Positions 13,341-63,580 of a stretch of 64,000 bases of DNA are shown here, piece by piece (the stretch's first letter is position 1; each line of letters opens with the position of its first letter). The notes under the pieces were generated by a model, which was not told the DNA's origin, did no database searches, and saw nothing but the letters and a program-made list of their open reading frames with translations. The position numbers were made by a program, and so were the translations under genes. This stretch comes from an uncultured Candidatus Saccharibacteria bacterium (GTDB taxonomy: Bacteria; Patescibacteriota; UBA1384; CAYGGE01). The DNA is taken from assembly GCA_964349485.1 (NCBI GenBank), contig CAYGGE010000001.1, positions 4,665 to 68,664 on the forward strand, in the 5' to 3' direction.

Positions 13341-13964
13341 TTAGTCTTTGAGGATGTCAGAAAGCTTGTCTTCCAAGGCCTTCAAACGGTCTTCTTCTGT
13401 CGCTTCGGAAGCATCTTGATTCTTAGCGGCTTTCTTAGGAGCACGCTTTGGCTTCTCTTCTTTGGCAGTCTCAGTTACTTCTGGGGTAGTTTCTTCGGTA
13501 ACGACAGTTTCGTCTGGTGCTTCTTCGGCAGGAATCTCGTCAGCGATAGCTTTATCGAGAGCTTCCATCTTGGTTGCTTCAGTCTCTTCTTGGTTAGTGT
13601 TTACTACTTCTTGATTCACCGGCTCAGCCACTGTATCTTCCAACATCTCGGCGGCGGCAATTGCTTCACGAACTGTTTTAGAGACTTCCTTATTCGCCTT
13701 AGGAATCCGTTTGGTTACGATCAGGTGTCGTATGATCGCTGTGTTCAACCGAAGTTTTCGGTCAAGCGCAGCTTGTGCAGCTTCGTTAATATCGAAAACA
13801 AAGGTCGTGTAGACGGCCTGAGTCTCTTTATTGATTGGGTAGACGAGGCGACGTCGGCCCATGGTGCTTTCGACCTGAATAGTTCCGCCTGCCTCTTCGA
13901 TCGCGGCTTTTACGCCAGGATCAGCCTCTTCCTTGGTCAGGAAGGTAATTTCGTAGAGTGCCAT
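13341..13964 (-). CDS. rpsF: 30S ribosomal protein S6 with extended acidic C-terminal tail
   Basis: MALYEITFLTKEE...TMGRRRLVYPINKETQAVYTTFVFD is the canonical bS6 core. The rpsF-ssb-rpsR gene order is conserved. Confidence 0.95.
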   Translation of the reverse strand: MALYEITFLTKEEADPGVKAAIEEAGGTIQVESTMGRRRLVYPINKETQAVYTTFVFDINEAAQAALDRKLRLNTAIIRHLIVTKRIPKANKEVSKTVREAIAAAEMLEDTVAEPVNQEVVNTNQEETEATKMEALDKAIADEIPAEEAPDETVVTEETTPEVTETAKEEKPKRAPKKAAKNQDASEATEEDRLKALEDKLSDILKD

Positions 13965-13983
13965 AACTATGGTCCTCCGTACC

Positions 13984-14004
13984 TCTTACTATGAGTAAGA
14001 GGAT
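13984..14004 (-). promoter_or_regulatory. Leader hairpin in the rpsF 5' UTR (9-bp stem CCTCTTACT/AGTAAGAGG, 3-nt loop), about 10 nt upstream of the RBS
   Basis: Inverted repeat read directly at 13984-13992 / 13996-14004. The GGAGGA RBS follows on the minus strand. It is a possible autoregulatory or stability element. Confidence 0.45.
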
Positions 14005-43086: not shown

Positions 43087-45654
43087 ATGCAAAATAATAA
43101 TCGCCAACAGATCACTTATCTCGCCCTCCTAAGCCTATTCATCATGGGCATGTTTGTGGCTACATCGCCGACCGTAACACACGCCCAAGACCAGGCCGTC
43201 AGTATCGATCTGGCCGATTGTGCGACCACCCAGCGCCAGAGCACAACCAAAGCTAAAAACGATGTCGCACTGACTGAGACTAAACAATTGACCGAGAATT
43301 TTCTGCTAAATGCCTTCACCTACCAAACGCTCAATCAGCGGTTACGTTGTGATCCACTGATTGTCGGCGTTCTCGACGATCAAGGCAAGCCAACGACAAC
43401 AAGTATCTACAAGACATCACAAAACTTGGTTAATTTTGGCGTCTTAGTCGCTTTGCTCATCATTGCTTTTGCCAATATTCTGCCGCTGAAAATTGAGACC
43501 TATGCGGTAAAAAAAGCGGTACCAATGTTAGTACTTGGTGTAGTTCTCGCTAATCTAGCCCTACCAATGATCCGGACCGTAGTCGATTTTTCTGGTGTCC
43601 TGACTGCCACGCTAATTAGCTCTGCCACCCCTGAGCAGACCCGAACGGCCTTCGTCGAACAGCTCGTTAGCACTGTCTATAAGGGCGGAGCGGCGGCCAC
43701 CGGCGATGCCCTACGAGGAATTGCCACAGGTAATGGTGGGTTAAATGCGGCGATCGGCATTGTCGGTTTCGGTGTCGCGCTCGCTGGGGCAACCGGACCA
43801 TTCTTTGTGGCTCTCTTTGTCGGAGTCCTCTTCCTGATCACTCTTCCCAGTATCATTTTCCTCTATCTCGGTATCCTGTTTGTGGCCCGCATTTACGTCT
43901 TAGTCATCCTAACCGCGACCTCACCGATTGCTTTTGCCTCGATTGGCTTTGAGCCGCTCAAAGGGAAGATTTGGGCCTGGTGGTGGAAGCAGTTTATTAA
44001 CTGGACGTTCATGGCCCCGGCAACCTTCTTCCTCATGTGGGTCAGTATTCGGTTCTATCAGGCCGTTAATGAGCAACCAGATATTGGGACCTATGTCCTC
44101 ACGCTCGCCCTCCTCTTCCTCGCGGCCCAAATCCCGACCAAAATGGGTGGGACGATTATCAGTAAATGGAATGACACCTTCGCCGCTCCATTACGCAGTT
44201 TGGCTCTGAAGCCGTTTACCAGCGCCAAGGACTATGTTCAAAAGGCCGCCCCGCGCGATCTGTCTCGGTTCGCCAGCAACCGGGGGCTCAATCCAGTAAA
44301 ATTTGCCTCTGAGTTTGGCGCCGCCGTCGAGAAGAAAAATGCCGAACGCGAGACCTATTCCAAGTCTGCTGGCGCTGGTCGGTTCTATGGGACGATTCGG
44401 GGCTCAATGCAAAATGTATGGTCTAAGCAGGAAAGGGATGAAGCCTGGGCTAATCGGTTTAATAATTCCGATGTCCGCGAAGAGTTTCGAAAGAAATCTC
44501 AAATGGATATCATAAAACGCTACCATTTAGATCAGTCCATGATTGAAGATAAAACGACTAACGCTGGGAATAACGAAGACATTAGGAGTGCGCTTGAAAA
44601 AGATCGAGAGGCGGTTAAGGCTGGCACTATCACCGAACAAGAGAAGATTCGTAACATCATATTAAACCACGGTCAGCTTGGTGGTAAATTAAGCGATATC
44701 GATGCCACCGCCCTTTTTGAAAAGATTCAAAATCCCGCGCTTCGAGATGACTTAAAGAAGCTCTACGCTGCTTACTACACGAGAAAAACCGACGATCCAT
44801 ATAGTTTTGGTACATCGCCAGCCGAGCTGAGCAAGGCCAATGAAAGTCGTGATGAGCAAAATAAGGTGAAGCCGGACGAGCAGTTCTCGAAGGACTTGGC
44901 CGCACTAGGCAATCGAATTGCCAATGCCATCAGCACCGCCGCCGAAAACAAGAAAGAGAAAGAATATCTAACTCGAATGCTAGATCAGCTACGAACTATG
45001 AACATAAACCTTAATGATCTTGGAGCGATCGAAAAAGATATCAATGCCCTAGCTACTGTCAAAGCCTTGCTCAAGTATGGTAAGAATGCGCCAACCGATG
45101 GTCAAAACAGCTCTACCATGGCTGAGATTGAACAACACCGAGCCGCCCTTGGTGTAATTAGGATTGAAAAGCTTATCAGTTCTCCAAGTGGTGCGGCGTT
45201 GGCCGCCGCAATCAACCACCAGCGTCAAGAGCGGGCCGACAGTGGCGGTTCTCCATTTGTTCAGCTTGATCTAAATCAGCTCCAAGGCTTACTATCTCAA
45301 GGGACCAATCATGACCCGGCCCAAAGCCAAGCCATCAGAGAGGCTATAGAAAATACTAAAGAACTTCGAGATTTCCTTAAGCACTTGCTAACTACCTCAC
45401 TTAGTGCAAAACTCGATGTCGGAGATCTTGATAGATTGGTTAATCATGTTCTGCCCGAAGATGGCATACCAACAAAACTACATGCCGAAGCAATCAGGTC
45501 TATTGTCTCCGATAAAAATAAGGCCTCACCGGCAATTGCCCAGGAAATCGCCATGCGGGCCGAGAGCTACAATAATGCAGTCGACCAAATTAACGAAGCA
45601 AAAGCCATGCAGCAGATTACTGCCGGACACGTCACCACGACCGTCAACAGCTAG
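43087..45654 (+). CDS. Polytopic membrane protein with VirB6/TrbL-like architecture plus about 520-aa hydrophilic C-terminal extension
   Basis: Signal peptide (LALLSLFIMGMFVATSPTVTHA), about 90-aa exported N-domain, then 5-6 TM helices (LVNFGVLVALLIIAF; VPMLVLGVVLANLALPMI; IGIVGFGVALAGATGPFFVALFVGVLFLITLPSIIFLYLGILFVARIYVLVILTA; FINWTFMAPATFFLMWVSI; YVLTLALLFLAAQIP), then a long helical tail. This layout is typical of T4SS VirB6/TrbL proteins. Starts 5 nt after the upstream stop. Confidence 0.5.
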   Translation: MQNNNRQQITYLALLSLFIMGMFVATSPTVTHAQDQAVSIDLADCATTQRQSTTKAKNDVALTETKQLTENFLLNAFTYQTLNQRLRCDPLIVGVLDDQGKPTTTSIYKTSQNLVNFGVLVALLIIAFANILPLKIETYAVKKAVPMLVLGVVLANLALPMIRTVVDFSGVLTATLISSATPEQTRTAFVEQLVSTVYKGGAAATGDALRGIATGNGGLNAAIGIVGFGVALAGATGPFFVALFVGVLFLITLPSIIFLYLGILFVARIYVLVILTATSPIAFASIGFEPLKGKIWAWWWKQFINWTFMAPATFFLMWVSIRFYQAVNEQPDIGTYVLTLALLFLAAQIPTKMGGTIISKWNDTFAAPLRSLALKPFTSAKDYVQKAAPRDLSRFASNRGLNPVKFASEFGAAVEKKNAERETYSKSAGAGRFYGTIRGSMQNVWSKQERDEAWANRFNNSDVREEFRKKSQMDIIKRYHLDQSMIEDKTTNAGNNEDIRSALEKDREAVKAGTITEQEKIRNIILNHGQLGGKLSDIDATALFEKIQNPALRDDLKKLYAAYYTRKTDDPYSFGTSPAELSKANESRDEQNKVKPDEQFSKDLAALGNRIANAISTAAENKKEKEYLTRMLDQLRTMNINLNDLGAIEKDINALATVKALLKYGKNAPTDGQNSSTMAEIEQHRAALGVIRIEKLISSPSGAALAAAINHQRQERADSGGSPFVQLDLNQLQGLLSQGTNHDPAQSQAIREAIENTKELRDFLKHLLTTSLSAKLDVGDLDRLVNHVLPEDGIPTKLHAEAIRSIVSDKNKASPAIAQEIAMRAESYNNAVDQINEAKAMQQITAGHVTTTVNS

Positions 45655-49524: not shown

Positions 49525-52500
49525 ATGCTCGGACAACGGAATATGGAGGAACCCGGATTTCAACTTCTGCCTAAAGCAGAAGATATTTCGGGTAAAGAAG
49601 TCCATTTAGAAGGCACCCCCGGACGCCTAGCCAACTCCGACATCATGCTCGACGAACTCAGTGATCAGGTTGAGGTTGGTCTCAAAAAACGATTTGTCAC
49701 TAACCGACGACGCGAACTTGAAAATGGTGAGGCTAAGTGGCTCACTCGATTTGAAGCTGAGTTTCAGGGAGACGCCCCACACATTTACCGTGACATGGTC
49801 CTCGATAGGGATGAGGCGAGTTGGGATGCAGATTTGAGACTTGCCAAATCTTCGCTACAAGAGCTACTTGAGGAATTAAATAAAGCCAAAGCGACTACTT
49901 TTAAAACACTCGGTGAGCAGATTGGGATCATGACTCGCCAATTCCAAGTTAGTGAGGAGACCGATAGAACAATACGCGCGCTTATACTACAAGCAACAGA
50001 AGATAAAGATGCATTTGATACCGCTCGTAATGAAGCAATTAGAGTTATCAAAGGGATTCTAGACGAGCAGACCGCAATAAAGCTTGAACTAACTCAAGCC
50101 ATGACTACAAGTTGGGATAGTACAAGTAACGCAACTAAAGCATTTATTAAGCGTCGTTGGTTTGCCAAGCGTTGGGCTGAGGAATTAGGAACGATAGAAC
50201 GCGAGGCTGAACTTGATGTGTTGAAACGAAGGTACAACGCGCCGTACGAAGTCCACACTGGACATGAACGAAAAGTCTACGAAGCGATACTCGAGTGGCG
50301 TAAATTGAAAGCTAAGATGAACGCCGGCGGTTTAGACCAGACTCGACGAGCAGAAATTGGTCGAGCGATGAAAGAACAGGCGGCTGTTGTTCAAGAACAT
50401 ACCTCAACTCTTACTGGTACATTCGATAGTCGATTTGAACAAGACGCCGACGGTATCTCACAAGCTAAAGGCGCCGCCTGGGCGGAGATCCATGACCTCA
50501 TCGACAAAAATCGCACGACGACTGGTGACGTGAAAAAAACCTTCCTCGAGATCAACGCTAACTACGACCGGGGTAGTATCGAGACCGCCAACGAAAAAGC
50601 GATGGCCTTCTTCCAGTTTGGCATCGCCAAAAATGCTCTGAAGCAATTTGGTCGCTATAACATAACTCAGTACCTTCGTGACTTCCCCTACCAGACTATG
50701 GAAGAAGACCCTGAGCTTGACGATAAGAGGCGACCAGCTATGGTCGCTGAAAAACGAGATGCTGCCGATGCAGCACACCAAGAAGCAACAAAATTGCGAG
50801 AAATACACAAGGAGCTTAATGATAAGCAGACAGAGACTCAATTACTCTATGAAGATATGGCTGCTGCAGTCAATGAACTAAAAACTCAATATAATATCAA
50901 TCGAGCAAATGCACCGCTTGTGCGTAACCCAGCAGGTGGTGCAGATATCCCTGATCCAGTAGCGCTTAGAGAGTACCGTGAACAATTTCAAACAAGACTT
51001 GCTCACCTTGTTCTTCAGCGCGACAGGATGCAAAAGGCACTCGCTGAAGCACGTAATGAAACAAAAGCAGCCGACCAAAGAGCATTGGCGGCAGAACGCG
51101 ATCACACAGAAAAGCAGGCCGCCTACTCGGCAATCAACACTTTACACTCTACTCCGACCGACCTAGCCACACGCCGTGCCACTGCCGCTCGAACCATCCG
51201 CACCGATAGTGGTGCGTATGCTCGAGAGCGTTTGCGTGACCTTCGCACCAAACTCCAGCAGTTTGTCGGCCAAGACAATCTACGCAAAGACTTTTACAGC
51301 ATCTTCAATGACCGTGAGATACTCGTCATTGCCAAGATCTGCGGCGAGATACCAACTCAAAAACATGAACGCACCGGTCGAAGGATATTTGCGCCACGTG
51401 TCGTCGAGACTTGTGGGGGGGCTGATGCCGACTATTGGTTCATTAACCCTTATGCCATCCCCGAGTGGACAGGCAAGGTTTCGAACGATGTCGTGCGTGA
51501 GCTGTTCGACAACGCAGGCAGGTATCCAGAAGTCCAACAAATGGTTAATGACCTGAAGACCCATAATAAGATAGTAATTGTCGCTGGTTTCCCAGTCAAT
51601 TTCGATCTTGATGGGGGCATGAACGAACAACAGCTCGCCCAAACTGGCCAAGAGCTCGATCTCTCCGATAGCAAATTTAAAGCTATGAAGGCCGCCTACG
51701 GCTTCGCTAACGATTCTGACTTCTTTGCCCGATGGCTTGACGATCTTGAGTTGCAAGAGAAGCTAGGAATGCGCCCCGAGGAGATGGAAGATCGCTACGC
51801 TACCTGGATGGCCAAGCGACACTTACTGCGCAATCAACACTTTGCCGCTGGCGAGGGTTGGACCTATGTCGACACGGCTGTCGCTTCTAGCGCTCGTAGA
51901 TTTGTCGATACCGCCAAGCGACTACGCGACGGTGGCTATGAACTAACTGGAGTAGATTTCCGTCGCTCACCCTACTACAACCGTTTAATACGGGATAATG
52001 AGTATGCTGTCACGGTTACCGAAAACACGGGTCAGCGAAAAGTCAGTTTCCGTAACCAGGAACTGACAGAAAAAAATGAGGCTCCTCAGACCGTCGCCAA
52101 ACGGTTGTACGATTCATATCGCGGAACACTCAATCTTTACTATCAGCGAACCCAGATCGGTGGCCAATCAACCGCTTTCGATGCTGACGCGCCGATCGAC
52201 GATCTCGGTAACTTTGTCCAGGCCAACATGGCTCTTATCCAGAAGAAGATGCAGATCTTGAAATCAATCTACGAATATCCAACCATGAGTGCTGAAGAGA
52301 AGATTAGCAATATGATCCGCTTCCGCAGTGGTGATCCAATATTCGCTCCAAGCATCGGCCTAGTTACTCCTGGCGCACCGCCGCCGGTCGGGGTTCCCCT
52401 ATTTACAGATGCCAACGGCAATCCAGACCCTGGTATGATCTATCTCACCTATGACATCGTTACCGCCGCCGGTGATCCCAACCTTCAGGCAACGAATCCT

Positions 52501-53619
52501 GAGCTTTGGGCTGAACTAGACGCCACAGTCAACTGGCAGAAAAAACTCAATACTGATTATCGCGATGCGGAGCAACGACTGGTTAATACGCTAAGTAATC
52601 GTTCTGCGACCGCCATTGAGATTGACACGGCTGAAGCCTTTTACGATACACAACTTCAATTAATGCGTAACTATAAGGTTCGTTCTCACCTCCTTGGCAT
52701 GCAAGCCGCTGGCCGATTTTCCGAGATGGATAGTAGCGGTATCGCCGAATACATGGCCGATATGCACTCCGATGTGGCCATGACCGCGGTCATCCGCCGT
52801 CAAGAGCTTGAGATGGCGGCACGAAACCGCCTAGATACTGATCATCCTCGAATTCTTCAGCCATTACGTCAGTTGGCCGTCGGTTTAGTCGGTAAGTTAG
52901 CTCGTAATAGAGTAGCTGACTTTGCCCGAGGTGTCGGCAATGCAATCGGTGTTGGAGATAAATTCTTACGAGAACTCGATGAGCGCCAAGTTACTCATCT
53001 AATTGAGAATAAAGTCGACGACGAGGTCTTCCGCCGAGTGGCTGCCCACGTTGCGCTCAATCTTAAGACTGGCTACAGCAACAACTTTTGGCATGTCCGT
53101 CCCGGCAATGCTAAGAGTGATGTCTATCCGCGAACTAGTGATGTTCGTGATTTGCTGGGCCTACGTAGTAACCAAGCGATTACTGGCGGCGTTGAGATGA
53201 CCCAAACCGGTCAACGATTGCTTAAGGGTCTTATGAAGACGCGACTGAAGGACGATGTCAACGAGGCGGTTGAACGAACAATCCGACTCAACATGAGTCA
53301 ATTCGTTCGAGCCGGCAAAAAAGGCGGTTGGAATGTCGATGAAGTTATCCATACTTATCTCAATGCTAAGATGAAAGATACCCAACGAGCTGTCTTCCGT
53401 AGCGGACGTTGGGAGACTAATATGTATGCCACCACCGGCACACCTATTGCCATGGCAGACCGTTGGCTGATGCAGCTGATTCGCGAGCGAACCAACCGAG
53501 GCACTGGCAGGGGCTGGTTCCAGGGTTTGATGCCTAGTGTAGCAGCAAATGATACTCGACCAGGACCGATTAATGAAAATCGCACAACAGTAACCACTGA
53601 CTACATCAATCGACCGTAA
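49525..53619 (+). CDS. Giant hypothetical protein (1364 aa), predicted soluble, N-terminal coiled-coil region
   Basis: 4.1-kb ORF; no TM segment or NTPase motif; helical heptad-like N-terminal 500 aa. Confidence 0.8.
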   Translation: MLGQRNMEEPGFQLLPKAEDISGKEVHLEGTPGRLANSDIMLDELSDQVEVGLKKRFVTNRRRELENGEAKWLTRFEAEFQGDAPHIYRDMVLDRDEASWDADLRLAKSSLQELLEELNKAKATTFKTLGEQIGIMTRQFQVSEETDRTIRALILQATEDKDAFDTARNEAIRVIKGILDEQTAIKLELTQAMTTSWDSTSNATKAFIKRRWFAKRWAEELGTIEREAELDVLKRRYNAPYEVHTGHERKVYEAILEWRKLKAKMNAGGLDQTRRAEIGRAMKEQAAVVQEHTSTLTGTFDSRFEQDADGISQAKGAAWAEIHDLIDKNRTTTGDVKKTFLEINANYDRGSIETANEKAMAFFQFGIAKNALKQFGRYNITQYLRDFPYQTMEEDPELDDKRRPAMVAEKRDAADAAHQEATKLREIHKELNDKQTETQLLYEDMAAAVNELKTQYNINRANAPLVRNPAGGADIPDPVALREYREQFQTRLAHLVLQRDRMQKALAEARNETKAADQRALAAERDHTEKQAAYSAINTLHSTPTDLATRRATAARTIRTDSGAYARERLRDLRTKLQQFVGQDNLRKDFYSIFNDREILVIAKICGEIPTQKHERTGRRIFAPRVVETCGGADADYWFINPYAIPEWTGKVSNDVVRELFDNAGRYPEVQQMVNDLKTHNKIVIVAGFPVNFDLDGGMNEQQLAQTGQELDLSDSKFKAMKAAYGFANDSDFFARWLDDLELQEKLGMRPEEMEDRYATWMAKRHLLRNQHFAAGEGWTYVDTAVASSARRFVDTAKRLRDGGYELTGVDFRRSPYYNRLIRDNEYAVTVTENTGQRKVSFRNQELTEKNEAPQTVAKRLYDSYRGTLNLYYQRTQIGGQSTAFDADAPIDDLGNFVQANMALIQKKMQILKSIYEYPTMSAEEKISNMIRFRSGDPIFAPSIGLVTPGAPPPVGVPLFTDANGNPDPGMIYLTYDIVTAAGDPNLQATNPELWAELDATVNWQKKLNTDYRDAEQRLVNTLSNRSATAIEIDTAEAFYDTQLQLMRNYKVRSHLLGMQAAGRFSEMDSSGIAEYMADMHSDVAMTAVIRRQELEMAARNRLDTDHPRILQPLRQLAVGLVGKLARNRVADFARGVGNAIGVGDKFLRELDERQVTHLIENKVDDEVFRRVAAHVALNLKTGYSNNFWHVRPGNAKSDVYPRTSDVRDLLGLRSNQAITGGVEMTQTGQRLLKGLMKTRLKDDVNEAVERTIRLNMSQFVRAGKKGGWNVDEVIHTYLNAKMKDTQRAVFRSGRWETNMYATTGTPIAMADRWLMQLIRERTNRGTGRGWFQGLMPSVAANDTRPGPINENRTTVTTDYINRP

Positions 53620-53630
53620 GGAGGGAAGCC

Positions 53631-54449
53631 ATGCCTAAACCACTGACCCAATCGCTATTCAAACCAACCGATTTTGATCTGTTTCTCGATTCGATTGGCC
53701 TCTCCAAACAATCGAAGGAAGCTCGGATCAGCTTGATCGATCGCATGCAACAGGCGGTTGAATATCAGATTGTGACTCAAATCTTTAGCCGGCTCACTGG
53801 GGATGAGAAATTAAATCTCATTGATCTCATGAAAGAAGCTGACGAAACTGAAAACGAAAAACCAGTCAATGATTTTCTGCTGGAAAAGATCCCCGATATC
53901 GAGATGCTAGTCGATGAAGCGATCGATAAAGTTAAGAATGATCTCCGGATCGGTACCGCCGGCATGGCAGCCGCCATGGCCGAAGATATGGCCGTGCTCT
54001 CGAATCCAAAGGGGCTTGATTCGGGCGGATCGGCAGACGACTCATCCATCGTGGATCCTACAGCAGACACCATGAACGAGTCACCATCAAAGATCGAGCC
54101 AGTCTCCCATGCCGTAGCTTCCGAGCCAGAGACCGAAACGTCGTTCAGTCATACTGATCTACCATTTCCATGGGAAGCACCAGCCGGGGCCGCTGAAAAC
54201 CTTATGGCCCAACCAACTACGCCGACCGACGGTACAGACCGTAGCCGCCAGACAATTGACGCCTTTCCTTGGGAGGCCGACGTTAAGAACCATTCTGAGC
54301 CCGGGGCTGCTGCGCTCGGCGAGACTATTTCGAAAGCTGTGTTTCCGGCGGTTGACGAGCCAACTGTCAATCCAGCACAGGCGACGAGTAACCCGATTGA
54401 CGACGAACTGCGCGACTTGAACCAACCAACCCAAGTAAATAACCCCTAA
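53631..54449 (+). CDS. Acidic hypothetical protein (272 aa)
   Basis: AAGGAGGG RBS 11 nt after the upstream stop; D/E-rich, P-rich C-terminus. Confidence 0.6.
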   Translation: MPKPLTQSLFKPTDFDLFLDSIGLSKQSKEARISLIDRMQQAVEYQIVTQIFSRLTGDEKLNLIDLMKEADETENEKPVNDFLLEKIPDIEMLVDEAIDKVKNDLRIGTAGMAAAMAEDMAVLSNPKGLDSGGSADDSSIVDPTADTMNESPSKIEPVSHAVASEPETETSFSHTDLPFPWEAPAGAAENLMAQPTTPTDGTDRSRQTIDAFPWEADVKNHSEPGAAALGETISKAVFPAVDEPTVNPAQATSNPIDDELRDLNQPTQVNNP

Positions 54450-54451
54450 CC

Positions 54452-54796
54452 TTGGGCACACGAACCATGATCAAGCTTGACCCGATAAGCGAGAGCATCT
54501 GTCGTCGGCTTCGGCTATTCCAAGGCCTTCGACCGCTAGCTGAAGATACTGATCTAATGCACACCTTCCAAAAGGTTTTTGCGCAAGAACTTTTAACGTT
54601 CGTTGAGAGCCGGTTTGATATTGAACAGAAAACGCAACTAACACGATATCTCGAAAGCGGTCAACAACCAGACGCGACGGCCCTACTCAGTTTTGCGAAT
54701 CAGATTTTTCACGCCAATCCACAGACAGAGACGCAGTTCGAGCAACGTATCACCGCTCTTCTAGACGATTTCGTCAGTAAGGCGACCCATGCGTAG
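54452..54796 (+). CDS. Hypothetical protein (114 aa), overlaps the next gene by 8 nt
   Basis: Starts 2 nt after the upstream stop; its stop overlaps the ATG of the 54789 ORF. Confidence 0.5.
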   Translation: MGTRTMIKLDPISESICRRLRLFQGLRPLAEDTDLMHTFQKVFAQELLTFVESRFDIEQKTQLTRYLESGQQPDATALLSFANQIFHANPQTETQFEQRITALLDDFVSKATHA

Positions 54797-57700
54797 CCCA
54801 GAGCTAACCACTACGAGTAAGGGTAGCCTACACATGCCGCCCGATATTTTGGTTGGCTATTCTCTGACGCCGCCAGTATCAAAAGAATCCGATAAGACTG
54901 TATCAAGCCAACAATATGCTCGTTGGGCACCTGACATTTTGGTTGGCTATTCTCTGACGCCGCCTGTACCCAAGGAAGCTATCAGCCCTGGCATCCTGAA
55001 AGACCTTGAAGACAGTCAACGAGAGTTGCGCGAAGTGGCACAACAGAGCAGATCCGAGATCCGCGTACTTCAAAGTCTGCTCACCGAGGCAGCGGCTAAA
55101 GAGAAGCAGTTAGTCAGCGAACTGGACATACAGAAAGCCGCTCGAAGCGTAGCAGAGGCAAAGGCGAGAGAAAAAGAGACAGCCGCTGCAGCCCAACAGG
55201 CAGAGTTACGATTGAGACAGGATGCGCTCGAGGATGTAAAGCACGAATACCAATCACTCCAGGACCAACTTAAGTTGGTAGCCGAACGAGCTACAACTAT
55301 TCAAAATGAGTTAAACGCTGCGACAGCTCAGATCAAAAAACTAGAGGGAGCGGTTGCTAAGGCGGATCAAACCACAAAACTAAGTGAGGAGGCCTATCAA
55401 CGATTAGCTGAGACGATCAATCATGATGACGTAGATGCCCAAGCGGCCCAAGACGTGACAGTCGCTCGTTTGGCTGAACTCCGCAGACAGCTTACTGAAC
55501 TTCAAAAAGAAAATACTGATCTCAGTCGAGATATAGCATCGAAGACTAGTCAAATTGAGGAGCACGGGCATGCGGTAGCGGTCTCACAAGCACTGACTCT
55601 AAGTCTGATCGCGGAACGTGACCAAGCCCAAGGTTTGTTGCGACAAGCCAATGAGGCCTTCACGGTAACAGTGAAGAGTCATGAAGAGCTAATGGCTAAC
55701 CTCTTGGAGCAGTTTAACTCTACGTACAATGTGCACCAGACAGCCATCGCAACGGCGAGACAAGAAGTGGTCACAGCAATCCAAGCGAAAGATGAAGCCG
55801 AAACAGCCGCCCTCGAAGCGATGAGTAAACTTGAGGAGGCTACTACCAAGTCTGCAGCTGATTCAACGACTATCTCCCAGCTTAATCGTAGGCTCCATGA
55901 GCTAACTGAACGGACTGCGGCCGCTCAAGCCACCGCTGATCAGGCAACAACCAGAGTTAACGAACTCGAGGAGCAGAATCGACAGCTTACCGGCGAGCTA
56001 CAACGCTTCCGCGACGACCCATCAGTCGCCCGGCTTGAACAGGAAAAGATCGAACTGGCAGAGAGCTTGGCTGACAAAGAACGTGAGCTGGTCACTAGGA
56101 CTGAAGAACTCACCACAACGAGCGGTGAGTTTGCGCTACGAATCCGCACTTACGAACTTGAAATCAGTCGCCTCCATACTACTATTGAAGAAATAGTCGC
56201 ACACCACGAAAGCACTGTCGTCGAACTGCGTACAGAGCTGGCACGCGTCTCCGTACCAACAACTCAGACTGACAAAACCAGCGAGGCCGGATCGACACCC
56301 TTAGCGATCAACGAGGCCACACCACGTATTACTGAGCTTCAAGCCGAAATACGCACCCTGGAAGAACAGATTAGTCTCCAACAAGCCACTAATCAATCCT
56401 TAATTGACCAGATGACCGCCGATTCGGCCACTGCTGCGGCTGAGATAGAACGAGCCAGACAGGAATCGACTACCACCAGCCAAGAGCTTACCAGAAGACT
56501 CGACGAAGCAACAGCACAGGTGGCAGATCAAACCAGACAACTTCAGGAGATGACGGAAAGTAGTGCGATCGATATGAAGTCTGTACAGGAATCTCTGACA
56601 CAGACTGGCCTACAACTGGCCGCCGCTACCCAACAAGCGACTGAGGCAATACTACAAACTACTCAATTGACTACAGAGCTTGAGGCTGCTAAACAACAGA
56701 TTACCGAAGCGAAGGCCGAGGCAGAGCGACTGGCTACCCTCCGTGCCGAGGACGCACAACGATGGCAAGCGGAGCGTGATCGTCTGCGCCAACCTGGGTT
56801 ACTCCAACAGCTCCTCGATCGACTAATTCGACCAACACCCCCACCCCCGCCAGTCGCTCCTGGTCCTGTAGCCCCTAAGCCGGTCACTCCAGCAACCATG
56901 TCAGAAGAAGCTGAGCGAAAAAAGGTCAGTCGTCGAAGGCTATTACAGCTTGGCGGAGGCATCGCCACAACGATCACTGCGGCAGTTGTGCTTGAGAAAG
57001 TAATTAGTCCTCCAGTTAGTCAAAAAACTACGGAGACCCGCAGGGCCTTTATCGAGTCCCCTTCCCTAGCTACTCTCTATGCTGATATCAAAGAACCAGT
57101 CACAGAACAGCTGTTCATCGAACGCGGTAGTCTCATCGAAGATAAGGAAATTATCCATACGGGCTCGATTGTTCATACCGGCGACCTCCTAGATCGCTGG
57201 ACCTATTTAGCTCGTGAGCTCGCCGAAACTCAGGAAGATCACTTGAATGCAGCAACGCTGATTAAATATCGCAATACCATCCTCCTTTGTCGAAGCGCGA
57301 AAGATCTTTACCCTCAGGCAGTTAAATTTCAATTTATCGAGAAAGATGGCAAACTAACTATCATCCCGCTCGACTGGAAGGAGAAAGTAGCCGTTCGCCG
57401 AGAGATTAAGTCAGACCTAGTAATTGCCGGCGGTGAGATCGAAGCGATCGTGGCGGCGATGCATGCCGTCAAGAAAGGTATGCGACCAACTTTGATCTAT
57501 CAAACAGGCAAGTTAGGCGGTCTCAATTCGGATACTGGCGCCAATATGGCTTACTTTGATGCCGTGAATAACGGTACGGTCAAACCACCAGAGGAGATGG
57601 TTGAACTATTTCAAATTGGACTTGGCATGCCAGCAGGTAGCCTCATCTCTCTAAACAATGAAGGCCTAGATCAAAAACTACACCGGTTTTTGAAAACCCA

Positions 57701-58907
57701 TTACCCAACAGTTACTTTGATCCCCACCCGGACATTGAACTCAACGCACACCCGTACCTTGACGACCGATGTATTAGGAAAGGCACCTCGCATTGAACTC
57801 GTAACCGAGGAGGGCACCCAAATTCACGCTAACAATATGATCGACATGAGCACTGAATGCTTAATCGGTGAGAAGCTGGGTCTTGACATGACACCAGACA
57901 CGCCAAACTTGGCCTATGGCATGGTCTTCGATATCAAAAATATTAAACACCCAGAGTTAAACGCCACTGTCAAAGATGGTCGGCTTCACCCTGATAAAAT
58001 CTTAGTACTTATGGGACTCACACACACCGCTGTCGATGAACACGAAGAGCTGAAACCGTACTATCGTGAGTGTCTGGCCGCTCAGTCGAAAAACACCAAC
58101 TACTCCCCTAGCGAGAGTTGGGGCTATGCCGCCTTAGGCAACGCCTTTAATTTTTATATGAAGCTTCAGGAGTTCCACGGACCTGCAGAGCTACGGGGCA
58201 TCATTAAGGAGCTTAATCAACTTCGCCTGGTTGATGGCTTCAATGTTGCCTACCATCAAGGTGACCGAGCGACCTTCAATAGTATCAGTTGGAAATTTAA
58301 GAAACGACTCTACCAAAGTGACCACAGCGTCCACACTGATCCGGAATTTGCTGCCATCCGCCAAGTTGAGATCCCCTTACTGCAACAATTTATGCGCCAG
58401 ATCGTGGGCAACGATAGCCTTACTGTGGTACTTCCACAGGAGATGTATGTCCGTCAAGCTACGGCTCACTTCCCAACTTCGCTCGAACGAACTCGACACG
58501 ACCTTAGTCACACCCCGCTGGGTGATCCTGAAGATTCATTTAAGTATTACAACGACTATCGTGGTCTTACTCCACGTAACCAATGGGATACCTACCCTGC
58601 CGAGCTTAAGGGTGAGACCCCGGTTTACATGAAAGCCGACCCTCGTTTTACTGTGACCGTAATCCCTGGTGTCTATCTAGTCAATAAGAACGCCCAAAGC
58701 GCTGTGACCTTCGGAATTGGCCGAATTCAACAAAATCTAGCTCTCCAAGCCAGGGCGACTGTCGACGCCATGAGCCAAGGCCGGCTCGAGGCGATGGCTA
58801 GACCTTTACGTGACCAAGCAGTCGCGAGTACTAAACGATTTAACCCCAATCGAGCTTTGGTCGCTCGCTTAATCCAAAAAATGCCAAGTGAAGTCCGCAC
58901 CGTCTAA
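54789..58907 (+). CDS. Giant membrane-anchored protein (1372 aa): N-terminal duplicated motif, about 600-aa coiled coil, Pro-rich linker, single TM, about 650-aa C-terminal globular domain
   Basis: PDILVGYSLTPPV(S/P)KE x2; long Q/E/A-rich heptad region; RPTPPPPPVAPGPVAPKPVTPA linker; RRRLLQLGGGIATTITAAVVL TM; the C-domain contains a Rossmann-like beta-alpha-beta string DLVIAGGEIEAIVAAMHAVKKGMRPTLIYQ. Confidence 0.8.
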   Translation: MRSPELTTTSKGSLHMPPDILVGYSLTPPVSKESDKTVSSQQYARWAPDILVGYSLTPPVPKEAISPGILKDLEDSQRELREVAQQSRSEIRVLQSLLTEAAAKEKQLVSELDIQKAARSVAEAKAREKETAAAAQQAELRLRQDALEDVKHEYQSLQDQLKLVAERATTIQNELNAATAQIKKLEGAVAKADQTTKLSEEAYQRLAETINHDDVDAQAAQDVTVARLAELRRQLTELQKENTDLSRDIASKTSQIEEHGHAVAVSQALTLSLIAERDQAQGLLRQANEAFTVTVKSHEELMANLLEQFNSTYNVHQTAIATARQEVVTAIQAKDEAETAALEAMSKLEEATTKSAADSTTISQLNRRLHELTERTAAAQATADQATTRVNELEEQNRQLTGELQRFRDDPSVARLEQEKIELAESLADKERELVTRTEELTTTSGEFALRIRTYELEISRLHTTIEEIVAHHESTVVELRTELARVSVPTTQTDKTSEAGSTPLAINEATPRITELQAEIRTLEEQISLQQATNQSLIDQMTADSATAAAEIERARQESTTTSQELTRRLDEATAQVADQTRQLQEMTESSAIDMKSVQESLTQTGLQLAAATQQATEAILQTTQLTTELEAAKQQITEAKAEAERLATLRAEDAQRWQAERDRLRQPGLLQQLLDRLIRPTPPPPPVAPGPVAPKPVTPATMSEEAERKKVSRRRLLQLGGGIATTITAAVVLEKVISPPVSQKTTETRRAFIESPSLATLYADIKEPVTEQLFIERGSLIEDKEIIHTGSIVHTGDLLDRWTYLARELAETQEDHLNAATLIKYRNTILLCRSAKDLYPQAVKFQFIEKDGKLTIIPLDWKEKVAVRREIKSDLVIAGGEIEAIVAAMHAVKKGMRPTLIYQTGKLGGLNSDTGANMAYFDAVNNGTVKPPEEMVELFQIGLGMPAGSLISLNNEGLDQKLHRFLKTHYPTVTLIPTRTLNSTHTRTLTTDVLGKAPRIELVTEEGTQIHANNMIDMSTECLIGEKLGLDMTPDTPNLAYGMVFDIKNIKHPELNATVKDGRLHPDKILVLMGLTHTAVDEHEELKPYYRECLAAQSKNTNYSPSESWGYAALGNAFNFYMKLQEFHGPAELRGIIKELNQLRLVDGFNVAYHQGDRATFNSISWKFKKRLYQSDHSVHTDPEFAAIRQVEIPLLQQFMRQIVGNDSLTVVLPQEMYVRQATAHFPTSLERTRHDLSHTPLGDPEDSFKYYNDYRGLTPRNQWDTYPAELKGETPVYMKADPRFTVTVIPGVYLVNKNAQSAVTFGIGRIQQNLALQARATVDAMSQGRLEAMARPLRDQAVASTKRFNPNRALVARLIQKMPSEVRTV
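54842..54959 (+). repeat. Two copies of a 32/33-nt near-identical direct repeat (GA(T/C)ATTTTGGTTGGCTATTCTCTGACGCCGCC) spaced 86 nt start-to-start, inside the 54789 ORF
   Basis: Read directly at 54842-54873 and 54928-54959; each encodes DILVGYSLTPP. Confidence 0.8.
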
Positions 58908-58990: not shown

Positions 58991-61900
58991 ATGCCCGGAC
59001 CAGAAGGAGCAAGGCCAGGCCCTGACGAAGTTGGTATTGACGACACAGACAGTGTCGTTGATCCGGTTGCGCCTGAAGTGGCGAAACCTGAAGAAAAGTC
59101 ACCGACGCCACCTGACCCAGAGCAAGAACGTCAGAGTAGTCGAAGACTTGAACTAACCAGACAGGTTAGTTCGATGCGCAATTCTGAGTTGTTCGATGGT
59201 CTAACCGACACAGAAGATCTAATTGATATTGAGTCCTTAGCCCATACTCAACCGATTACCGAAGCGGGAAACAGTACAGTCGCAGTAGCTAGCCACGAGT
59301 TCATGCGAGACTTGATCGTACGTCGGATCGAGGGCGCAGTTAGATATATTGCCGAAGTAATTAGGCCGAGGCTTTCCGAGACGAGAGGTACAGGCACAAG
59401 ACCAGCTAAAGAACTCGCCGATGAGATCGATAACGAACTAGAGCAGGCTAGGCACAATATTGACTGGGAAATGGGAGATCTCAATTCGTTATTCAACTTC
59501 TATGTGACCCAAGTGCAGGGCCATGCACAGCGAATAACCGATCGGTTAGCGCCTAACCTTGATCTGCCTGGTCCTGGCGACTGGAACACCTGGATTCGTG
59601 AGCACCCTGAAGATATTGAAGCTGAATCAGTCGCCAGCCCAGAAACTGCCGAGCCTAAACTAGAGCGAAAAAGTGTTGCCGAACCAGTGAAGCGTCTCGA
59701 TAAAGGCGCAGCACGGGCGATTGCGGCAGGAGCGATGAGTACAATAGATAGTCTTAACCGAGGCTGGGATATTTTGATTAAAGAAATTCGCGCCTTAGGC
59801 AAAAAGAAAGTTGACGATGAACCGGTCAAACTCGATGAACCTAGGGAAGAACCTTCAGAAACAACCGAGACTACACCGCGGGTTGAACGTCAGGCAACTG
59901 AAATCGACCCTGAAGAAATACAGATGACGATGATCGATATGTATCGACGAGATGTATCTGCCGATACAGAAGAACAAGATCGTCGGGGCGATCTAACTAA
60001 TCAACAGATTTTGGAAGAAATGAGTAGGGAGCCAGAAATATACGACGCGCTTGTCAGTAAAGCGATCGCTAAAACTCTAATCAATCGAGAACTGGCGAAC
60101 GTGCGGAAAGCAACTTATGAACGCCAAAAGCAACTCGAGAAAAAGGGTGTAGCTAAAAAGCTCCTCGCCTTCCTAGGTACGACTTATGCTGGTGTTTTAG
60201 CTAGACATCTTATCCAACAAGGCCTAATCGGTGAAGCCGTTAAATGGGCTGGAACAGAAGCGACTAAAGAAACAGTTCTGGCCGCCGCTCGTGGAGTCAG
60301 CATGTGGTCAGGTATTGCCGTCGGCGGCGCCGTCGGTGCCGGATTTGGTGCCTACAGAGCCAGGGAACGGGCCAAGCGGAAGCAGTTTGAAGTCACAGCC
60401 CTCCTTGAGGCCGCCGATAGTGACGAAAAACTCAATCTCACGCCTCAAGAACGAGCCGATCTTGTCCGTAAACTATTGGTTGAAAAACGGTTCTACGGCA
60501 CGAGTGAAGCCATCGAACAAGCCTACACCTCAATTGAAGAGACCCGTCAAGCACAACTAGCCAACGAGCTACGGATTGTCCGAGACCGCCAGAAGGCTGA
60601 GACAGCTGATTATGAGAATCTCACACTCGAAGAGCGATTGAGATTAGTTGCCGAAGCCTTAACCCAGCTCTATCAAACAAGAATGGACGAGAGCGGTTCA
60701 GAAGCTACCAAAACGAGAGAGATCCAGGCTTTTATCGACGGTCGGCAACGAGTCGTCAACAAAGAGACTTGGAAGGGCGCGGCGCTTGGTGCCGTTGCCG
60801 GAGCTGTTCCAGCCGGTATCTTTGGCTGGTTCTTCCCCTCTTCAGGCTTGGTGACACAGATTAATACTGAAGTCGTGATGCGCGCTCCAGAGCGCTTGGC
60901 TGACATGGTGTCTGCGTTCACCGGAAGTAGCCCCGATCTAGCACTAGGCGACAATATGGGAGTCGATCTTCGTCATGAGTATAACGGGAAACAACTCGCG
61001 ACTTGGGCTGCTGACTATATTAAGGACGCCAAGGCTAACGGTGTCAGTACCGAGAATATTGAACGTGGGTTGCACCATCTCCTCTCCCATGCTGAAGCGA
61101 TCACCAAGAACTGGGATCAGTTCCAAAGCATCGTCCATCAACATGCAACTGATACCGGTAAAGACTTCACCCTTTCAGTCATCCACGGCGGCGCGAACGG
61201 CTTGCTCGTACCTTTTTCAGACATGGGCGCTGGTGGTGAGCTCGGCAAAGACATGGCCCACTCAATGCACAGCTACGTCACCCATGGCTTTACTAGAGAC
61301 ACGTTAAATCCCAGCTACTTACCTTACGGTGACCATCTCCATAAAACCATCAACCATATGGGATTCGAGACACCGTGGTTTGTCAGCGACCCCGTTCCCT
61401 TGATTGGAGCAATTGGTAGTTCGGCAGGAGCCAAGTTAAGCGGTAGCAGTGAGAGTATCAAGGGAGCTGTTGATAAATTGCGTAACCGTAAAAGCGAAGC
61501 AACGAAAGAACAGGTCAAGGAAAAGGAAAAGTTGGGTAATCGAGGTCCTCATGAAACGGCAGAGATCGAGATCAACCCGACGATATTCGTTGATCCGAAT
61601 GAAAATAGAGACAAGCTAGCCGACCTCAATAACTTTGTCGTCCACCGACACGGTTACTTCGTCTTTAAGCAAGACGCAGTGACTGGTAAGATGCGAGCCT
61701 TTCGACTCTGGCCTATGCAGACTGCCAAGGCAAAGACCTGGGGCGATTCTCCTAGTGGCCTGCCAGCCGCTAACGATCCAAGCATGATGAATAGCGGACC
61801 AGAAAATGGTCTCGTCCCGCATGACCCAAATGCAGTTGAATTTGGCGAGATCTATTGTCATGAAGTCGAGTTTATTGATGTTTATAACTCGAGTCGTAGT

Positions 61901-63091
61901 ATCGACCATGAAACATATAAACCGCTCGATGATCAAGACCAGGTAGCTAACACTTGGACATCAAGACGCTGGAAGACGCCCGTAGGGAAAGTACCTACGC
62001 GCATCTCCTATCAGGAACTTACAAGTGACAACAAACTTGTCGTTATCCACCCCCAGGACGCCGACAAATACGCCTACCTCATCCACCGCGATCCCAGCTT
62101 AGTCGGGCAGATTCTGGGCGATAATAAACCTGAAGCACTAGATGATTTAATCGCCAAAGTTGATAAAGCAAAGAAGCCGGAACCAACACTCGAACCAGAG
62201 CCGGAGTCAAAAGACGAAATCAAAGCCGATACTGATCCGAACAGCCTTGAAACAGCTGACTTTACCGACATTGTCGAACCGAAAGAACTCAAGCCGGGCG
62301 AGATCTTAAAACATAAGTCCGGTATCTTCTTACGGGTCAAAGATAACTTATCTGATAGAATCACCGCCTACCGTTTCAGTAAGGATGATAAGCGCACGGG
62401 CAATGAGTTACTTTGGCTCGACCCCCAACAGATTGCCCACACTATCCTAGTGACTGATTTTCAGATTTATCGTAAAGAAGATCCGGCTCCAGAGCCACCG
62501 AAAGATGACGATTCAAGCGCGATTGAGCCTGAGCCAGATAAACGTTTTGAGTCTGCTCTTTACCCCAATAACCAATTTAGGAGAATCGAACAGCAAGATG
62601 TTGATGAAGGCAAAATCAGGCCTGAGGCGATCATCATGAATCAACAATACGGCACCAAATACAAGCTGATTGAACGACAGACTGTATATGATCAGAATGG
62701 TAATGAGGTACATACTTGGAGAATTGGCCTACTCGACCCCAACGACAACTTTAATGAATTAAATAGCGCCAAGCAGCCAATGTATCTTCTTGAGCAGTTC
62801 AACACCAATGATTACTTACTTTTTGAACCTTTATCCGAAACCCCACCCACCCTAGATAAATTTGTCGCCGAGAATTTTGAAGTTAATGATGATCCAAGGG
62901 TCTATGAGTCAAAATTCGTAGTCAGAAAAGACCACAATGTATATAAACTGCTTACGAAGAAAGATGATTTCTGGTTTGTCAGAATCTTGCGCGATGGTAG
63001 ATGGCAGAAGTCAGGAGATAGGATTACTGAAGATGAGATCGAAGCAGGCAAGATTTCGTTACATAAGGAGCAAACGCCCGAAGTCACTTAG
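58991..63091 (+). CDS. Giant hypothetical protein (1366 aa) with acidic N-terminus and two glycine-zipper hydrophobic segments
   Basis: AAGGAGAGGG RBS; GIAVGGAVGAGFGAY and GAALGAVAGAVPAGIFGWFF GxxxG-type segments; no enzymatic motif recognized. Confidence 0.8.
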   Translation: MPGPEGARPGPDEVGIDDTDSVVDPVAPEVAKPEEKSPTPPDPEQERQSSRRLELTRQVSSMRNSELFDGLTDTEDLIDIESLAHTQPITEAGNSTVAVASHEFMRDLIVRRIEGAVRYIAEVIRPRLSETRGTGTRPAKELADEIDNELEQARHNIDWEMGDLNSLFNFYVTQVQGHAQRITDRLAPNLDLPGPGDWNTWIREHPEDIEAESVASPETAEPKLERKSVAEPVKRLDKGAARAIAAGAMSTIDSLNRGWDILIKEIRALGKKKVDDEPVKLDEPREEPSETTETTPRVERQATEIDPEEIQMTMIDMYRRDVSADTEEQDRRGDLTNQQILEEMSREPEIYDALVSKAIAKTLINRELANVRKATYERQKQLEKKGVAKKLLAFLGTTYAGVLARHLIQQGLIGEAVKWAGTEATKETVLAAARGVSMWSGIAVGGAVGAGFGAYRARERAKRKQFEVTALLEAADSDEKLNLTPQERADLVRKLLVEKRFYGTSEAIEQAYTSIEETRQAQLANELRIVRDRQKAETADYENLTLEERLRLVAEALTQLYQTRMDESGSEATKTREIQAFIDGRQRVVNKETWKGAALGAVAGAVPAGIFGWFFPSSGLVTQINTEVVMRAPERLADMVSAFTGSSPDLALGDNMGVDLRHEYNGKQLATWAADYIKDAKANGVSTENIERGLHHLLSHAEAITKNWDQFQSIVHQHATDTGKDFTLSVIHGGANGLLVPFSDMGAGGELGKDMAHSMHSYVTHGFTRDTLNPSYLPYGDHLHKTINHMGFETPWFVSDPVPLIGAIGSSAGAKLSGSSESIKGAVDKLRNRKSEATKEQVKEKEKLGNRGPHETAEIEINPTIFVDPNENRDKLADLNNFVVHRHGYFVFKQDAVTGKMRAFRLWPMQTAKAKTWGDSPSGLPAANDPSMMNSGPENGLVPHDPNAVEFGEIYCHEVEFIDVYNSSRSIDHETYKPLDDQDQVANTWTSRRWKTPVGKVPTRISYQELTSDNKLVVIHPQDADKYAYLIHRDPSLVGQILGDNKPEALDDLIAKVDKAKKPEPTLEPEPESKDEIKADTDPNSLETADFTDIVEPKELKPGEILKHKSGIFLRVKDNLSDRITAYRFSKDDKRTGNELLWLDPQQIAHTILVTDFQIYRKEDPAPEPPKDDDSSAIEPEPDKRFESALYPNNQFRRIEQQDVDEGKIRPEAIIMNQQYGTKYKLIERQTVYDQNGNEVHTWRIGLLDPNDNFNELNSAKQPMYLLEQFNTNDYLLFEPLSETPPTLDKFVAENFEVNDDPRVYESKFVVRKDHNVYKLLTKKDDFWFVRILRDGRWQKSGDRITEDEIEAGKISLHKEQTPEVT

Positions 63092-63111
63092 GCTAATAAC
63101 AAGGAGACAAT

Positions 63112-63513
63112 ATGGATGACGACAATGCCCAATCGCTCGACACTTACCGTGAACAATACACTTTTTACGCAAAGAAGTTGCTCTCTGACCTTGGTCTCGG
63201 TGATCTCGGCCAACCCGAACGAACAGAGCTACTTTCAACTATTGAGCAGTATGTCCAGCAAGTGATCATGAATACCCTGCTCGAGAACCTTGATGAGCCA
63301 ATTACTACCGAGGCAGAGAAAATACTGAACGAAGGTGGCACGCAGGAAGATGCCTTGGTCTATATCATGAGCGCCATCCCCGACATTGAATACCGCATTA
63401 CCGTCGCCCTGACTGAATCGTACGCCCGCATGGTCGACGAGGCCAGACAGCTTGCTGATACTCTCGCCGCCAATAAGCCCAAGCAAGCGGCACACGCCCA
63501 AGCGACTGAGTAA
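63112..63513 (+). CDS. Small acidic hypothetical protein (133 aa), last gene of the cluster
   Basis: AAGGAGA RBS; followed by a terminator. Confidence 0.6.
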   Translation: MDDDNAQSLDTYREQYTFYAKKLLSDLGLGDLGQPERTELLSTIEQYVQQVIMNTLLENLDEPITTEAEKILNEGGTQEDALVYIMSAIPDIEYRITVALTESYARMVDEARQLADTLAANKPKQAAHAQATE

Positions 63514-63544: not shown

Positions 63545-63572
63545 AACGGGCTTGACAGACAGCCCGTTTTTT
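63545..63572 (+). terminator. Rho-independent terminator closing the giant-ORF cluster
   Basis: Stem AACGGGCT/AGCCCGTT (8 bp), loop TGACAGAC, followed by TTTTTTGG. Confidence 0.75.
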
Positions 63573-63580
63573 GGTACAAT
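63552..63580 (+). promoter_or_regulatory. Near-consensus promoter TTGACA-N17-TACAAT embedded in the terminator hairpin
   Basis: TTGACA at 63552-63557 and TACAAT at 63575-63580. It drives the downstream GTG-start ORF. Confidence 0.5.

Follow-up and report, generated by a model that had tools for sequence, protein, structure and literature searches.

Proteins of the Pfam family PF12831 (FAD_oxidored), which lies within the glutathione-reductase-type two-domain superfamily, are widespread in carbohydrate-utilization loci and mostly uncharacterized, and many of them are exported. Folds of this kind can outlive their cofactor: Rab GDP-dissociation inhibitor and Rab escort protein have the flavin adenine dinucleotide (FAD)-binding fold, yet they bind no FAD and act as binding proteins. 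Here, we describe a rare relative of PF12831 from an uncultured Candidatus Saccharibacteria bacterium, belonging to the Candidate Phyla Radiation (CPR; Patescibacteria). It is encoded by a gene, here called gene G, in a stretch of 64,000 nucleotides (nt) of contig CAYGGE010000001.1, the whole of which we refer to as the window. We propose, with a probability of roughly 0.5, that gene G encodes a type II envelope protein that would carry a PF12831-type glycan domain, cofactor-less or non-canonical, on the outside of the cell and a coiled-coil scaffold with a docking tip on the inside, and that would be made together with the product of a small overlapping gene, F, and work with the giant proteins encoded on either side. 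The gene G product is a real protein of 1372 residues with a predicted single membrane pass, its sequence having been called identically on independent assemblies, and unusual as it is, it is a variant of known building blocks. A first-pass annotation of this DNA, made by a model from its letters and open reading frames (ORFs), had given the domain order correctly: the ORF, an N-terminal repeat, a coiled coil, a proline-rich linker, a hydrophobic segment and a Rossmann-like string are all present (Table 1).

The C-terminal domain (C-domain) is what ties gene G to a known family. A full-length word-index homology search with the gene G protein returned only the protein itself, the coiled coil having probably swamped the candidate list. 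When 1.84 billion cluster representatives were searched exhaustively by HMMER with the C-domain alone, no more than 46 relatives came up, each of them matching via the C-domain and the best at 43% identity. Searched alone, the C-domain scores 29.3 bits against PF12831 (E = 7e-7), above the gathering threshold of 27, whereas the full-length protein stays under the cut-off at 24.4 bits; PF12831 is the sole relevant Pfam match, and 39 of the 43 aligned relatives match it as well, the best at 5e-17. The C-domain is a very rare and divergent branch of PF12831. The AlphaFold2 (AF2) model built from the family alignment has a predicted local distance difference test score (pLDDT) of 90.1 and a predicted TM-score (pTM) of 0.89, and its best Foldseek matches in the PDB are FrdA/SdhA flavoproteins and class A FAD monooxygenases (E ~5e-7 to 1e-5, probability 1.0). 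This likeness holds at the superfamily level only, as the TM-scores are 0.25-0.3, the identity is 8-12%, the root-mean-square deviation exceeds 11 Å and the FAD motifs of these enzymes are missing from gene G. As modeled, the fold class is clear, a two-domain FAD/NAD(P)-binding fold, and a close solved relative is absent. Searching PDB with the C-domain sequence gave noise only (ribosomal protein L24 at E ~1), and a profile search of PDB sequences matched only the beta-alpha-beta start.

The globular C-terminal part contains DLVIAGGEIEAIVAAMHAVKKG (aa 876-897), and the Rossmann-like string that extends it, DLVIAGGEIEAIVAAMHAVKKGMRPTLIYQ (aa 876-905), aligns to the beginning of the PF12831 profile; the LGG element and the two-domain fold are also common to both. 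The first-pass annotation had suspected a dinucleotide-binding-type fold lacking a strict GxGxxG, and the AF2 model, Foldseek, PF12831, the profile alignment and the column counts across the family all bear this out. Gene G departs from PF12831 in an extra N-terminal subdomain of ~130 aa and a helical insertion in the AF2 model, in its low structural similarity to any solved flavoenzyme and in its fusion to a 715-aa extension predicted to be cytoplasmic. The same annotation had held that its account would fall if the C-domain belonged to a mundane family unrelated to its neighbors; the superfamily is indeed a common one, but this branch of it is rare, and gene G lies within a conserved cluster.

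Gene G and its family also depart from PF12831 in two canonical signatures of FAD binding and apparently in the third, GD. Where the family consensus reads 'vvivGgElesvvtAiaaAdkGkkVtLlyagpLGG', L-amino-acid deaminase has 'VVIIGGGIQGIMTAINLAERGMSVTILEKGEVAG' in the profile alignment, and across the alignments to this enzyme and to lipoamide dehydrogenase the GxGxxG of FAD-dependent oxidoreductases becomes GgElEs and the Glu of beta2 becomes Tyr. In the family the motif takes the form GGE[LI]E[SA], with the second Gly of GxGxxG replaced by Glu in 37/41 sequences and the third by Ser or Ala in 38/41. The acidic residue of beta2, which binds the adenosine ribose, is Tyr904 in gene G and in the family Tyr 29 times, then Phe, His and Thr, and the expected site of the C-terminal GD motif, which contacts the ribitol, reads N1299-K1300 in gene G and [NS]K in the family (K in 38/42), an equivalence read from motif order. 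Invariant polar residues occur elsewhere in the C-domain (N433, N445, Q457, Y501 and R503 in C-domain numbering, corresponding to aa 1152, 1164, 1176, 1220 and 1222). Since the FAD signatures have been exchanged for other conserved residues, they appear to have been replaced and not merely to have decayed. The fold is probably still under selection for a ligand site and probably no longer binds FAD canonically. For such a path, a fold that outlives its cofactor and takes on a non-redox binding role, Rab GDP-dissociation inhibitor and Rab escort protein offer a precedent by analogy only, being eukaryotic and cytosolic proteins that we set beside gene G by fold and not by sequence.

The main rival explanation is that gene G is a working flavoenzyme exported by the twin-arginine translocation (Tat) pathway, in which case SRRRLLQ and the hydrophobic segment that follows it would form an uncleaved Tat signal that exports and then anchors a folded, cofactor-loaded enzyme, with F as a chaperone of the Tat-proofreading type that binds this signal. 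SRRRLLQ is a partial match to the twin-arginine motif, and together with the Gly/Ala/Thr-rich stretch behind it recalls the S/T-R-R-x-F-L-K and h-region of Tat signals; several relatives have RR directly before their hydrophobic segment (P0013, YSRRAFLGLL; P0015, SVRRIFAAS); the domain is a member of PF12831, an FAD-enzyme fold, and retains the LGG element after beta2; and F is small, soluble, helical and translationally coupled to G, a small soluble protein encoded next door like the chaperones TorD, DmsD and NapD. Yet GxGxxG and the beta2 Glu, and by motif order also GD, are replaced throughout the family, with Glu standing where a glycine packs against the pyrophosphate, and the gene G segment starts at aa 714 instead of at the N-terminus. 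In several forms from Armatimonadota the signal is of the plain Sec or lipoprotein type and lacks RR, the exported short forms have no F, F itself has no similarity in Pfam to the TorD, DmsD and NapD families, and no Tat genes were seen in the 64-kb window, a small sample and the only place where they were looked for. An active flavoenzyme is an unlikely reading of these data, and we favor a C-domain that has lost canonical FAD binding.

If the C-domain acts on a ligand, on which side of the membrane it does so depends on the hydrophobic segment that precedes it. This segment, L718-L735, follows KKVSRRR and is moderately hydrophobic (Kyte-Doolittle mean of 1.61 over 17 aa). Nearly all of the family members scanned have a basic stretch and a hydrophobic segment that precede the GGELES motif by 135-195 aa, and the family falls into two forms around this segment. 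The short forms, found by genome scan in Armatimonadota (Chthonomonas, Fimbriimonadales), have the segment as the N-terminus itself, signal peptide-like and often with a lipobox (MLGLLLLLAGC, FFALGC, CLSAC, SIGC, LGGC; also IGCS, LSAC, ALGC, LAGC), whereas in the long forms, found in the CPR groups Berkelbacteria and Saccharibacteria, it is internal with positive charges on its N-terminal side. Because the signal peptides and lipoboxes of the short homologues stand at the same position, the C-domain should lie outside and aa 1-717 inside. The simplest reading is that the C-domain would be extracytoplasmic throughout the family, and gene G is accordingly predicted to have a type II, N-in/C-out topology. 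What the first-pass annotation had called an Arg-rich stop-transfer is in our analysis a probable signal-anchor, and its picture of an extracellular stalk or ruler with a distal head, in which rod and head share one side of the membrane, gives way to a protein whose rod and head most likely lie on opposite sides. Fibrous surface proteins classically have this layout, with a globular domain after a long rod, and a segment of moderate hydrophobicity might fail to span the membrane. But gene G has no N-terminal signal peptide, aa 1-66 being polar and disordered; its sole hydrophobic segment sits between rod and head, with the positive charges on the rod side; and homologues that have no rod export the head via an N-terminal signal at that very position. 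We consider a stalk on one side of the membrane highly improbable, and the opposed arrangement is the one we adopt.

The cytoplasmic part of this arrangement would be dominated by the rod. The coiled coil claimed for gene G is real: the heptad signal of aa 71-690 lies at z = 7.8 above that of 100 shuffles, vs. 0.3 for the C-domain, and single-sequence AF2 makes aa 67-680 helical and aa 1-66 disordered, with the moderate confidence expected for a model without an alignment. Rich in Ala, Glu, Leu, Thr and Gln, and with only 4 Pro between aa 70 and 668, the rod is a long, proline-poor heptad-repeat region of the kind that defines coiled-coil proteins. Fully extended, its 614 residues would reach roughly 90 nm (calculated at 0.15 nm per residue), and five short breaks near aa 208-214, 354-358, 409-410, 489-505 and 591-595 could let it fold back on itself. 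In the linker that joins it to the membrane segment, the Pro-rich stretch proper covers aa 682-701. As in EzrA and the rods of SMC and myosin, there is a long heptad rod with short breaks, and as in EzrA one membrane helix, but gene G has no sequence homology to these proteins and neither an ATPase head nor a hinge, and its rod is N-terminal to the anchor and joined to a domain predicted to lie outside. The resemblance to SMC or myosin tails that had been noticed earlier is compositional only, and an SMC identity was rejected: TIGR02168 and TIGR02169 give ~22 bits where the curated cut-offs stand at 567 and 729, and a Walker A motif is missing. Nor is the rod a family trait. Nine long forms (P0010, P0016, P0017, P0020, P0023, P0026, P0028, P0034 and P0038) have in common a different, uncharacterized N-terminal cytoplasmic domain of ~150-250 aa with the pattern ...FR[IV]ERL...ASNSP..., which gene G lacks, and the gene G coiled coil matches none of these nine N-terminal domains. 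The rod of gene G is a lineage-specific, variable module.

At the tip of the rod, in the segment that single-sequence AF2 predicts to be disordered (aa 1-66), gene G carries a short duplicated peptide. A repeat finder detected a direct repeat of 48 nt (54840-54887 and 54930-54977; 88% identical) whose copies are 90 nt, or 30 codons, apart; at such length within 90 nt, a chance origin is impossible. Its 39-nt core encodes PDILVGYSLTPPV in both copies, which are identical at 36/39 positions, and the longest exact run is 29 nt, starting at 54846 and 54936. The repeat had thus been recognized rightly in the first-pass annotation, with its second copy, given as 54928-54959, placed ~4 nt off and its length of 32/33 nt slightly above the exact run. 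The conclusion drawn from it there, that such identity implies a very recent duplication or selection on the nucleic acid, does not hold. Over the 13 codons of the core there are 3 synonymous and 0 non-synonymous differences (11.3 and 27.7 sites, respectively), while the whole 30-codon unit is identical at only 53/90 nt (59%); a core held with synonymous changes only inside a diverged unit means that the duplication is not very recent and that only the peptide core was kept. P0014, a family member 35% identical to gene G in the C-domain, has a duplicated N-terminal motif of its own, YSGSLHKDFGRYSLFPDKK, whose two copies agree in 19/19 aa and differ in 11/57 nt, all 11 differences being synonymous. 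If the chance per difference equals the synonymous-site share of 12/57, the odds that all eleven would be synonymous are ~4e-8. The two motifs have the core GSLH…[GR]YSL[TF]P in common, and since the copies differ by synonymous changes only in both proteins, selection would act on the peptide and not on the nucleic acid. The window has no Rfam match (at gathering score) and no tRNA match, so that nothing marks the repeat as part of an RNA element. To judge from these substitutions, GSLH…[GR]YSL[TF]P looks like a short linear motif whose two copies are kept by purifying selection at the peptide level.

That the repeat might instead have arisen incidentally, as a tandem duplication without a function, has some points in its favor, as there are only two copies, most relatives do not have the repeat, and no relative is more than 50% identical to gene G, so that its conservation at the nucleotide level cannot be followed. 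It does not sit well with a core that remained at 36/39 nt through synonymous changes only in a unit that fell to 59%, nor with the independent homologue P0014, in which the same core is duplicated with saturated synonymous divergence and zero amino acid change, and we think it very unlikely. A selected peptide motif is the reading that we retain. A six-frame search of the window found the gene G motif in no other gene. Internal duplications of unrelated sequence occur in the cytoplasmic N-terminal regions of two other family members, P0018 (aa ~35-80 and ~100-145) and P0009 (aa ~240-320 and ~325-400), and tandem duplication seems to be common in the variable N-terminal module of the family.

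Gene G does not stand alone. It is one of nine consecutive genes on the + strand (41066-63513) whose products measure 671, 855 (polytopic), 1114, 1364, 272, 109-114 (F), 1372, 1366 and 133 aa, and none of the nine ORFs has an above-threshold match in Pfam, NCBIfam or PHROGs except for the PF12831 match of gene G. The small gene F overlaps the start region of G in 7 CPR loci and is a near-constant partner of the long forms. In L002, L012, L014, L015, L016 and L017, a homologue of F adjoins the start of the G homologue or overlaps it; L017 is the one extra locus that a metagenome scan added, and F was recovered there at 2e-20 with a hidden Markov model built without the L017 sequence. The Armatimonadota loci and the Saccharibacteria locus L003 yielded no F homologue. 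The order D-E-F-G-H-I recurs in L014, with homologues of D at 7e-53, E at 1e-30, H at 1e-82 and I at 4e-36 (I at L014:19481-19963), and in L012 an I-like (L012:548-952), an F-like and a G-like gene lie in a row. Protein I (63112-63513, +), which has no known domain, is conserved better than any other cluster member, with an identity of 54% in L012 (2e-39) vs. 43% for G. Gene G belongs to a recurring gene module, a cluster of giant ORFans.

The partners of G in this module match little. D and E have no match in Pfam, NCBIfam or PDB, and searches of PDB sequences with D, H and C, the 1114-aa product, found nothing. Protein E (53631-54449, +) and its homologue in L014 (L014:1013-2029) show sub-threshold matches to DUF5663, a family typical of CPR bacteria, that cover the profile almost completely (E = 0.063 and 0.014). 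These matches and the nearest named relatives, which are Berkelbacteria and Saccharibacteria, agree with a CPR source of the window. A paralogous relationship among E, F and I was rejected, as BLASTP gave no support and only E has the sub-threshold DUF5663 match. A phage or mobile-element origin of the cluster was likewise rejected: there are no relatives in viral contigs, PHROG matches are at noise level and composition is flat across the cluster. The 855-aa protein (43087-45654, +) carries a signal-like segment at its N-terminus and, within aa 110-351, about five hydrophobic ones, and its tail is long and hydrophilic; this layout recalls VirB6/TrbL-type proteins, and no family match backs it.

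Giant ORFans beside a polytopic membrane protein bring to mind a further explanation, namely that G and its neighbors are secreted effectors or adhesins sent to a host cell by a nearby apparatus, for which the duplicated motif would be a secretion or chaperone signal. The motif does lie at the extreme N-terminus in a disordered region, the small gene F resembles the arrangement of a dedicated chaperone, and in the Saccharibacteria locus L003 an 838-aa protein encoded two genes downstream of the G homologue (L003:12668-15184) has weak matches to TraG-D_C, DUF87 (HerA) and STAND NTPases, which hints at a secretion or translocation ATPase near a G homologue. In type IV secretion clusters, VirB4/VirD4 ATPases stand beside a VirB6-like protein, whereas the nine ORFs of 41066-63513 contain no secretion ATPase or Walker A and match no secretion system in Pfam, NCBIfam or PHROGs. 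The motif, moreover, is found in only 2 family members, and the conserved segment, a predicted signal-anchor, would already account for export of the head. Secreted effectors are, on balance, quite unlikely, and we keep to a membrane-anchored envelope protein.

The sole hint at a function comes from the neighborhood of the short forms and points to carbohydrates. In Armatimonadota these genes adjoin a sugar-binding protein with ATP-binding cassette permeases (L005:6983-9887), FGGY sugar kinase genes (L006:11656-13023; L008:3695-5062), a GH123-like gene (L009:11611-14532) and DUF4127 (L011:2202-3965), contexts in line with those of PF12831 at large. Taken with the architecture, this suggests how gene G might work. 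Its outer domain of ~600 aa would bind or process a carbohydrate, either from the cell envelope or from the surface of a host, probably in a non-redox manner; the anchor would be tied by the Pro-rich linker to the cytoplasmic rod of ~610 residues; and the two motif copies at the disordered tip of the rod could serve as a docking site for a cytoplasmic partner. G would be co-produced with F, whose gene overlaps its start codon, and the products of D-E-F-G-H-I may form an envelope-associated assembly. More speculatively, and with little confidence, we suggest that D-E-F-G-H-I constitute an undescribed envelope-spanning CPR assembly in which G is a transmembrane coupler, its cofactor-less flavoenzyme fold recognizing a glycan of the cell's own wall or of the host surface and its ~90-nm rod and tip motif relaying that contact to giant cytoplasmic partners, and which would act as a novel type of device for host attachment or surface sensing.

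Several observations weigh against the proposal of an outer glycan domain with an inner docking scaffold. The carbohydrate context was found with short forms, and these belong to another phylum. LGG persists after beta2, we infer the loss of FAD binding from motifs only, and any catalytic or binding activity of the C-domain is a prediction for a protein without a close solved structure. Membrane insertion of the segment is uncertain, given that it is Gly/Thr-rich as well as only moderately hydrophobic. Conservation across the family does not extend to the cytoplasmic region, so the coiled coil is not essential to the core function of the family; the motif occurs in no family member other than gene G and P0014, and a motif profile search of 5.8 billion proteins gave 1 candidate and no match at E <= 10. 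Finally, full synteny from D to I is found in one other locus only (L014).

The window is bacterial chromosome, with genes for CTP synthase, GroEL, RecQ, PolA, a Mur ligase and LeuRS upstream of the cluster. On opposite strands, two ORFs that each exceed 200 aa overlap almost fully (13326-13994, +; 13341-13964, -). The terminator-like hairpin that ends the cluster overlaps a strong, near-consensus promoter-like site at 63552-63580.

Table 1. Features of gene G and of the surrounding cluster, in window coordinates.
Feature	Coordinates	Strand	Basis or remark
Genes D (1364 aa) and E (272 aa)	49525..54449	+	Upstream cluster members; homologues in the same order in L014
Gene F, 109-aa helical soluble protein	54467..54796	+	Overlaps the start of G by 8 nt; no hydrophobic segment
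Gene G, 1372-aa protein	54789..58907	+	ORF list and translation
Peptide motif copy 1, PDILVGYSLTPPV, aa 18-30	54840..54878	+	GSLH precedes at aa 12-15; within predicted disordered region
Peptide motif copy 2, PDILVGYSLTPPV, aa 48-60	54930..54968	+	36/39 nt identical to copy 1
Alpha-helical coiled-coil rod, aa 67-680	54987..56828	+	Heptad z = 7.8; AF2 single-sequence helices
Pro-rich linker PTPPPPPVAPGPVAPKPVTP and basic juxtamembrane ERKKVSRRR, aa 681-717	56829..56939	+	Sequence, Pro positions, predicted disorder
Predicted hydrophobic signal-anchor segment LLQLGGGIATTITAAVVL, aa 718-735	56940..56993	+	Hydropathy; equivalent segments in family
PF12831-like two-domain FAD/NAD(P)-binding-fold domain, aa ~745-1346, predicted extracytoplasmic	57021..58826	+	HMMER, Pfam, AF2, Foldseek
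Degenerate dinucleotide-binding motif GGEIEA (aa 881-886) replacing GxGxxG	57429..57446	+	Profile alignment to 5fjm and 1ebd
Genes H (1366 aa, mid-protein membrane segments) and I (133 aa)	58991..63513	+	Downstream cluster members; homologues in L014
Terminator-like hairpin and T-run ending the cluster	63546..63572	+	ACGGGCT-TGACAGAC-AGCCCGT-TTTTT, read directly; absent from the listing of the scan that gave the promoter-like site

The fold and family of the gene G C-domain are known already. A literature search returned nothing useful on PF12831, DUF5663 or giant coiled-coil proteins of CPR bacteria, and the branch, the replacement of its motifs, its fusion to a rod predicted to be cytoplasmic, the duplicated and selected peptide, the partner F and the cluster itself appear to be undescribed. 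A large part of bacterial diversity belongs to CPR bacteria, most of which appear to live attached to other cells, while the proteins of their envelope and host interface are largely unknown. The locus described here is a testable candidate for such an envelope system, joining a rare predicted ectodomain to an anchor and an unusually long, presumably cytoplasmic rod, together with a coupled partner gene and a recurring cluster of giant ORFans. It also provides what looks like a clean bacterial case of a short linear motif of which two homologues, distant from each other, each keep two copies under purifying selection. Should the ectodomain bind or cleave a glycan without FAD, this would be a new function for PF12831.

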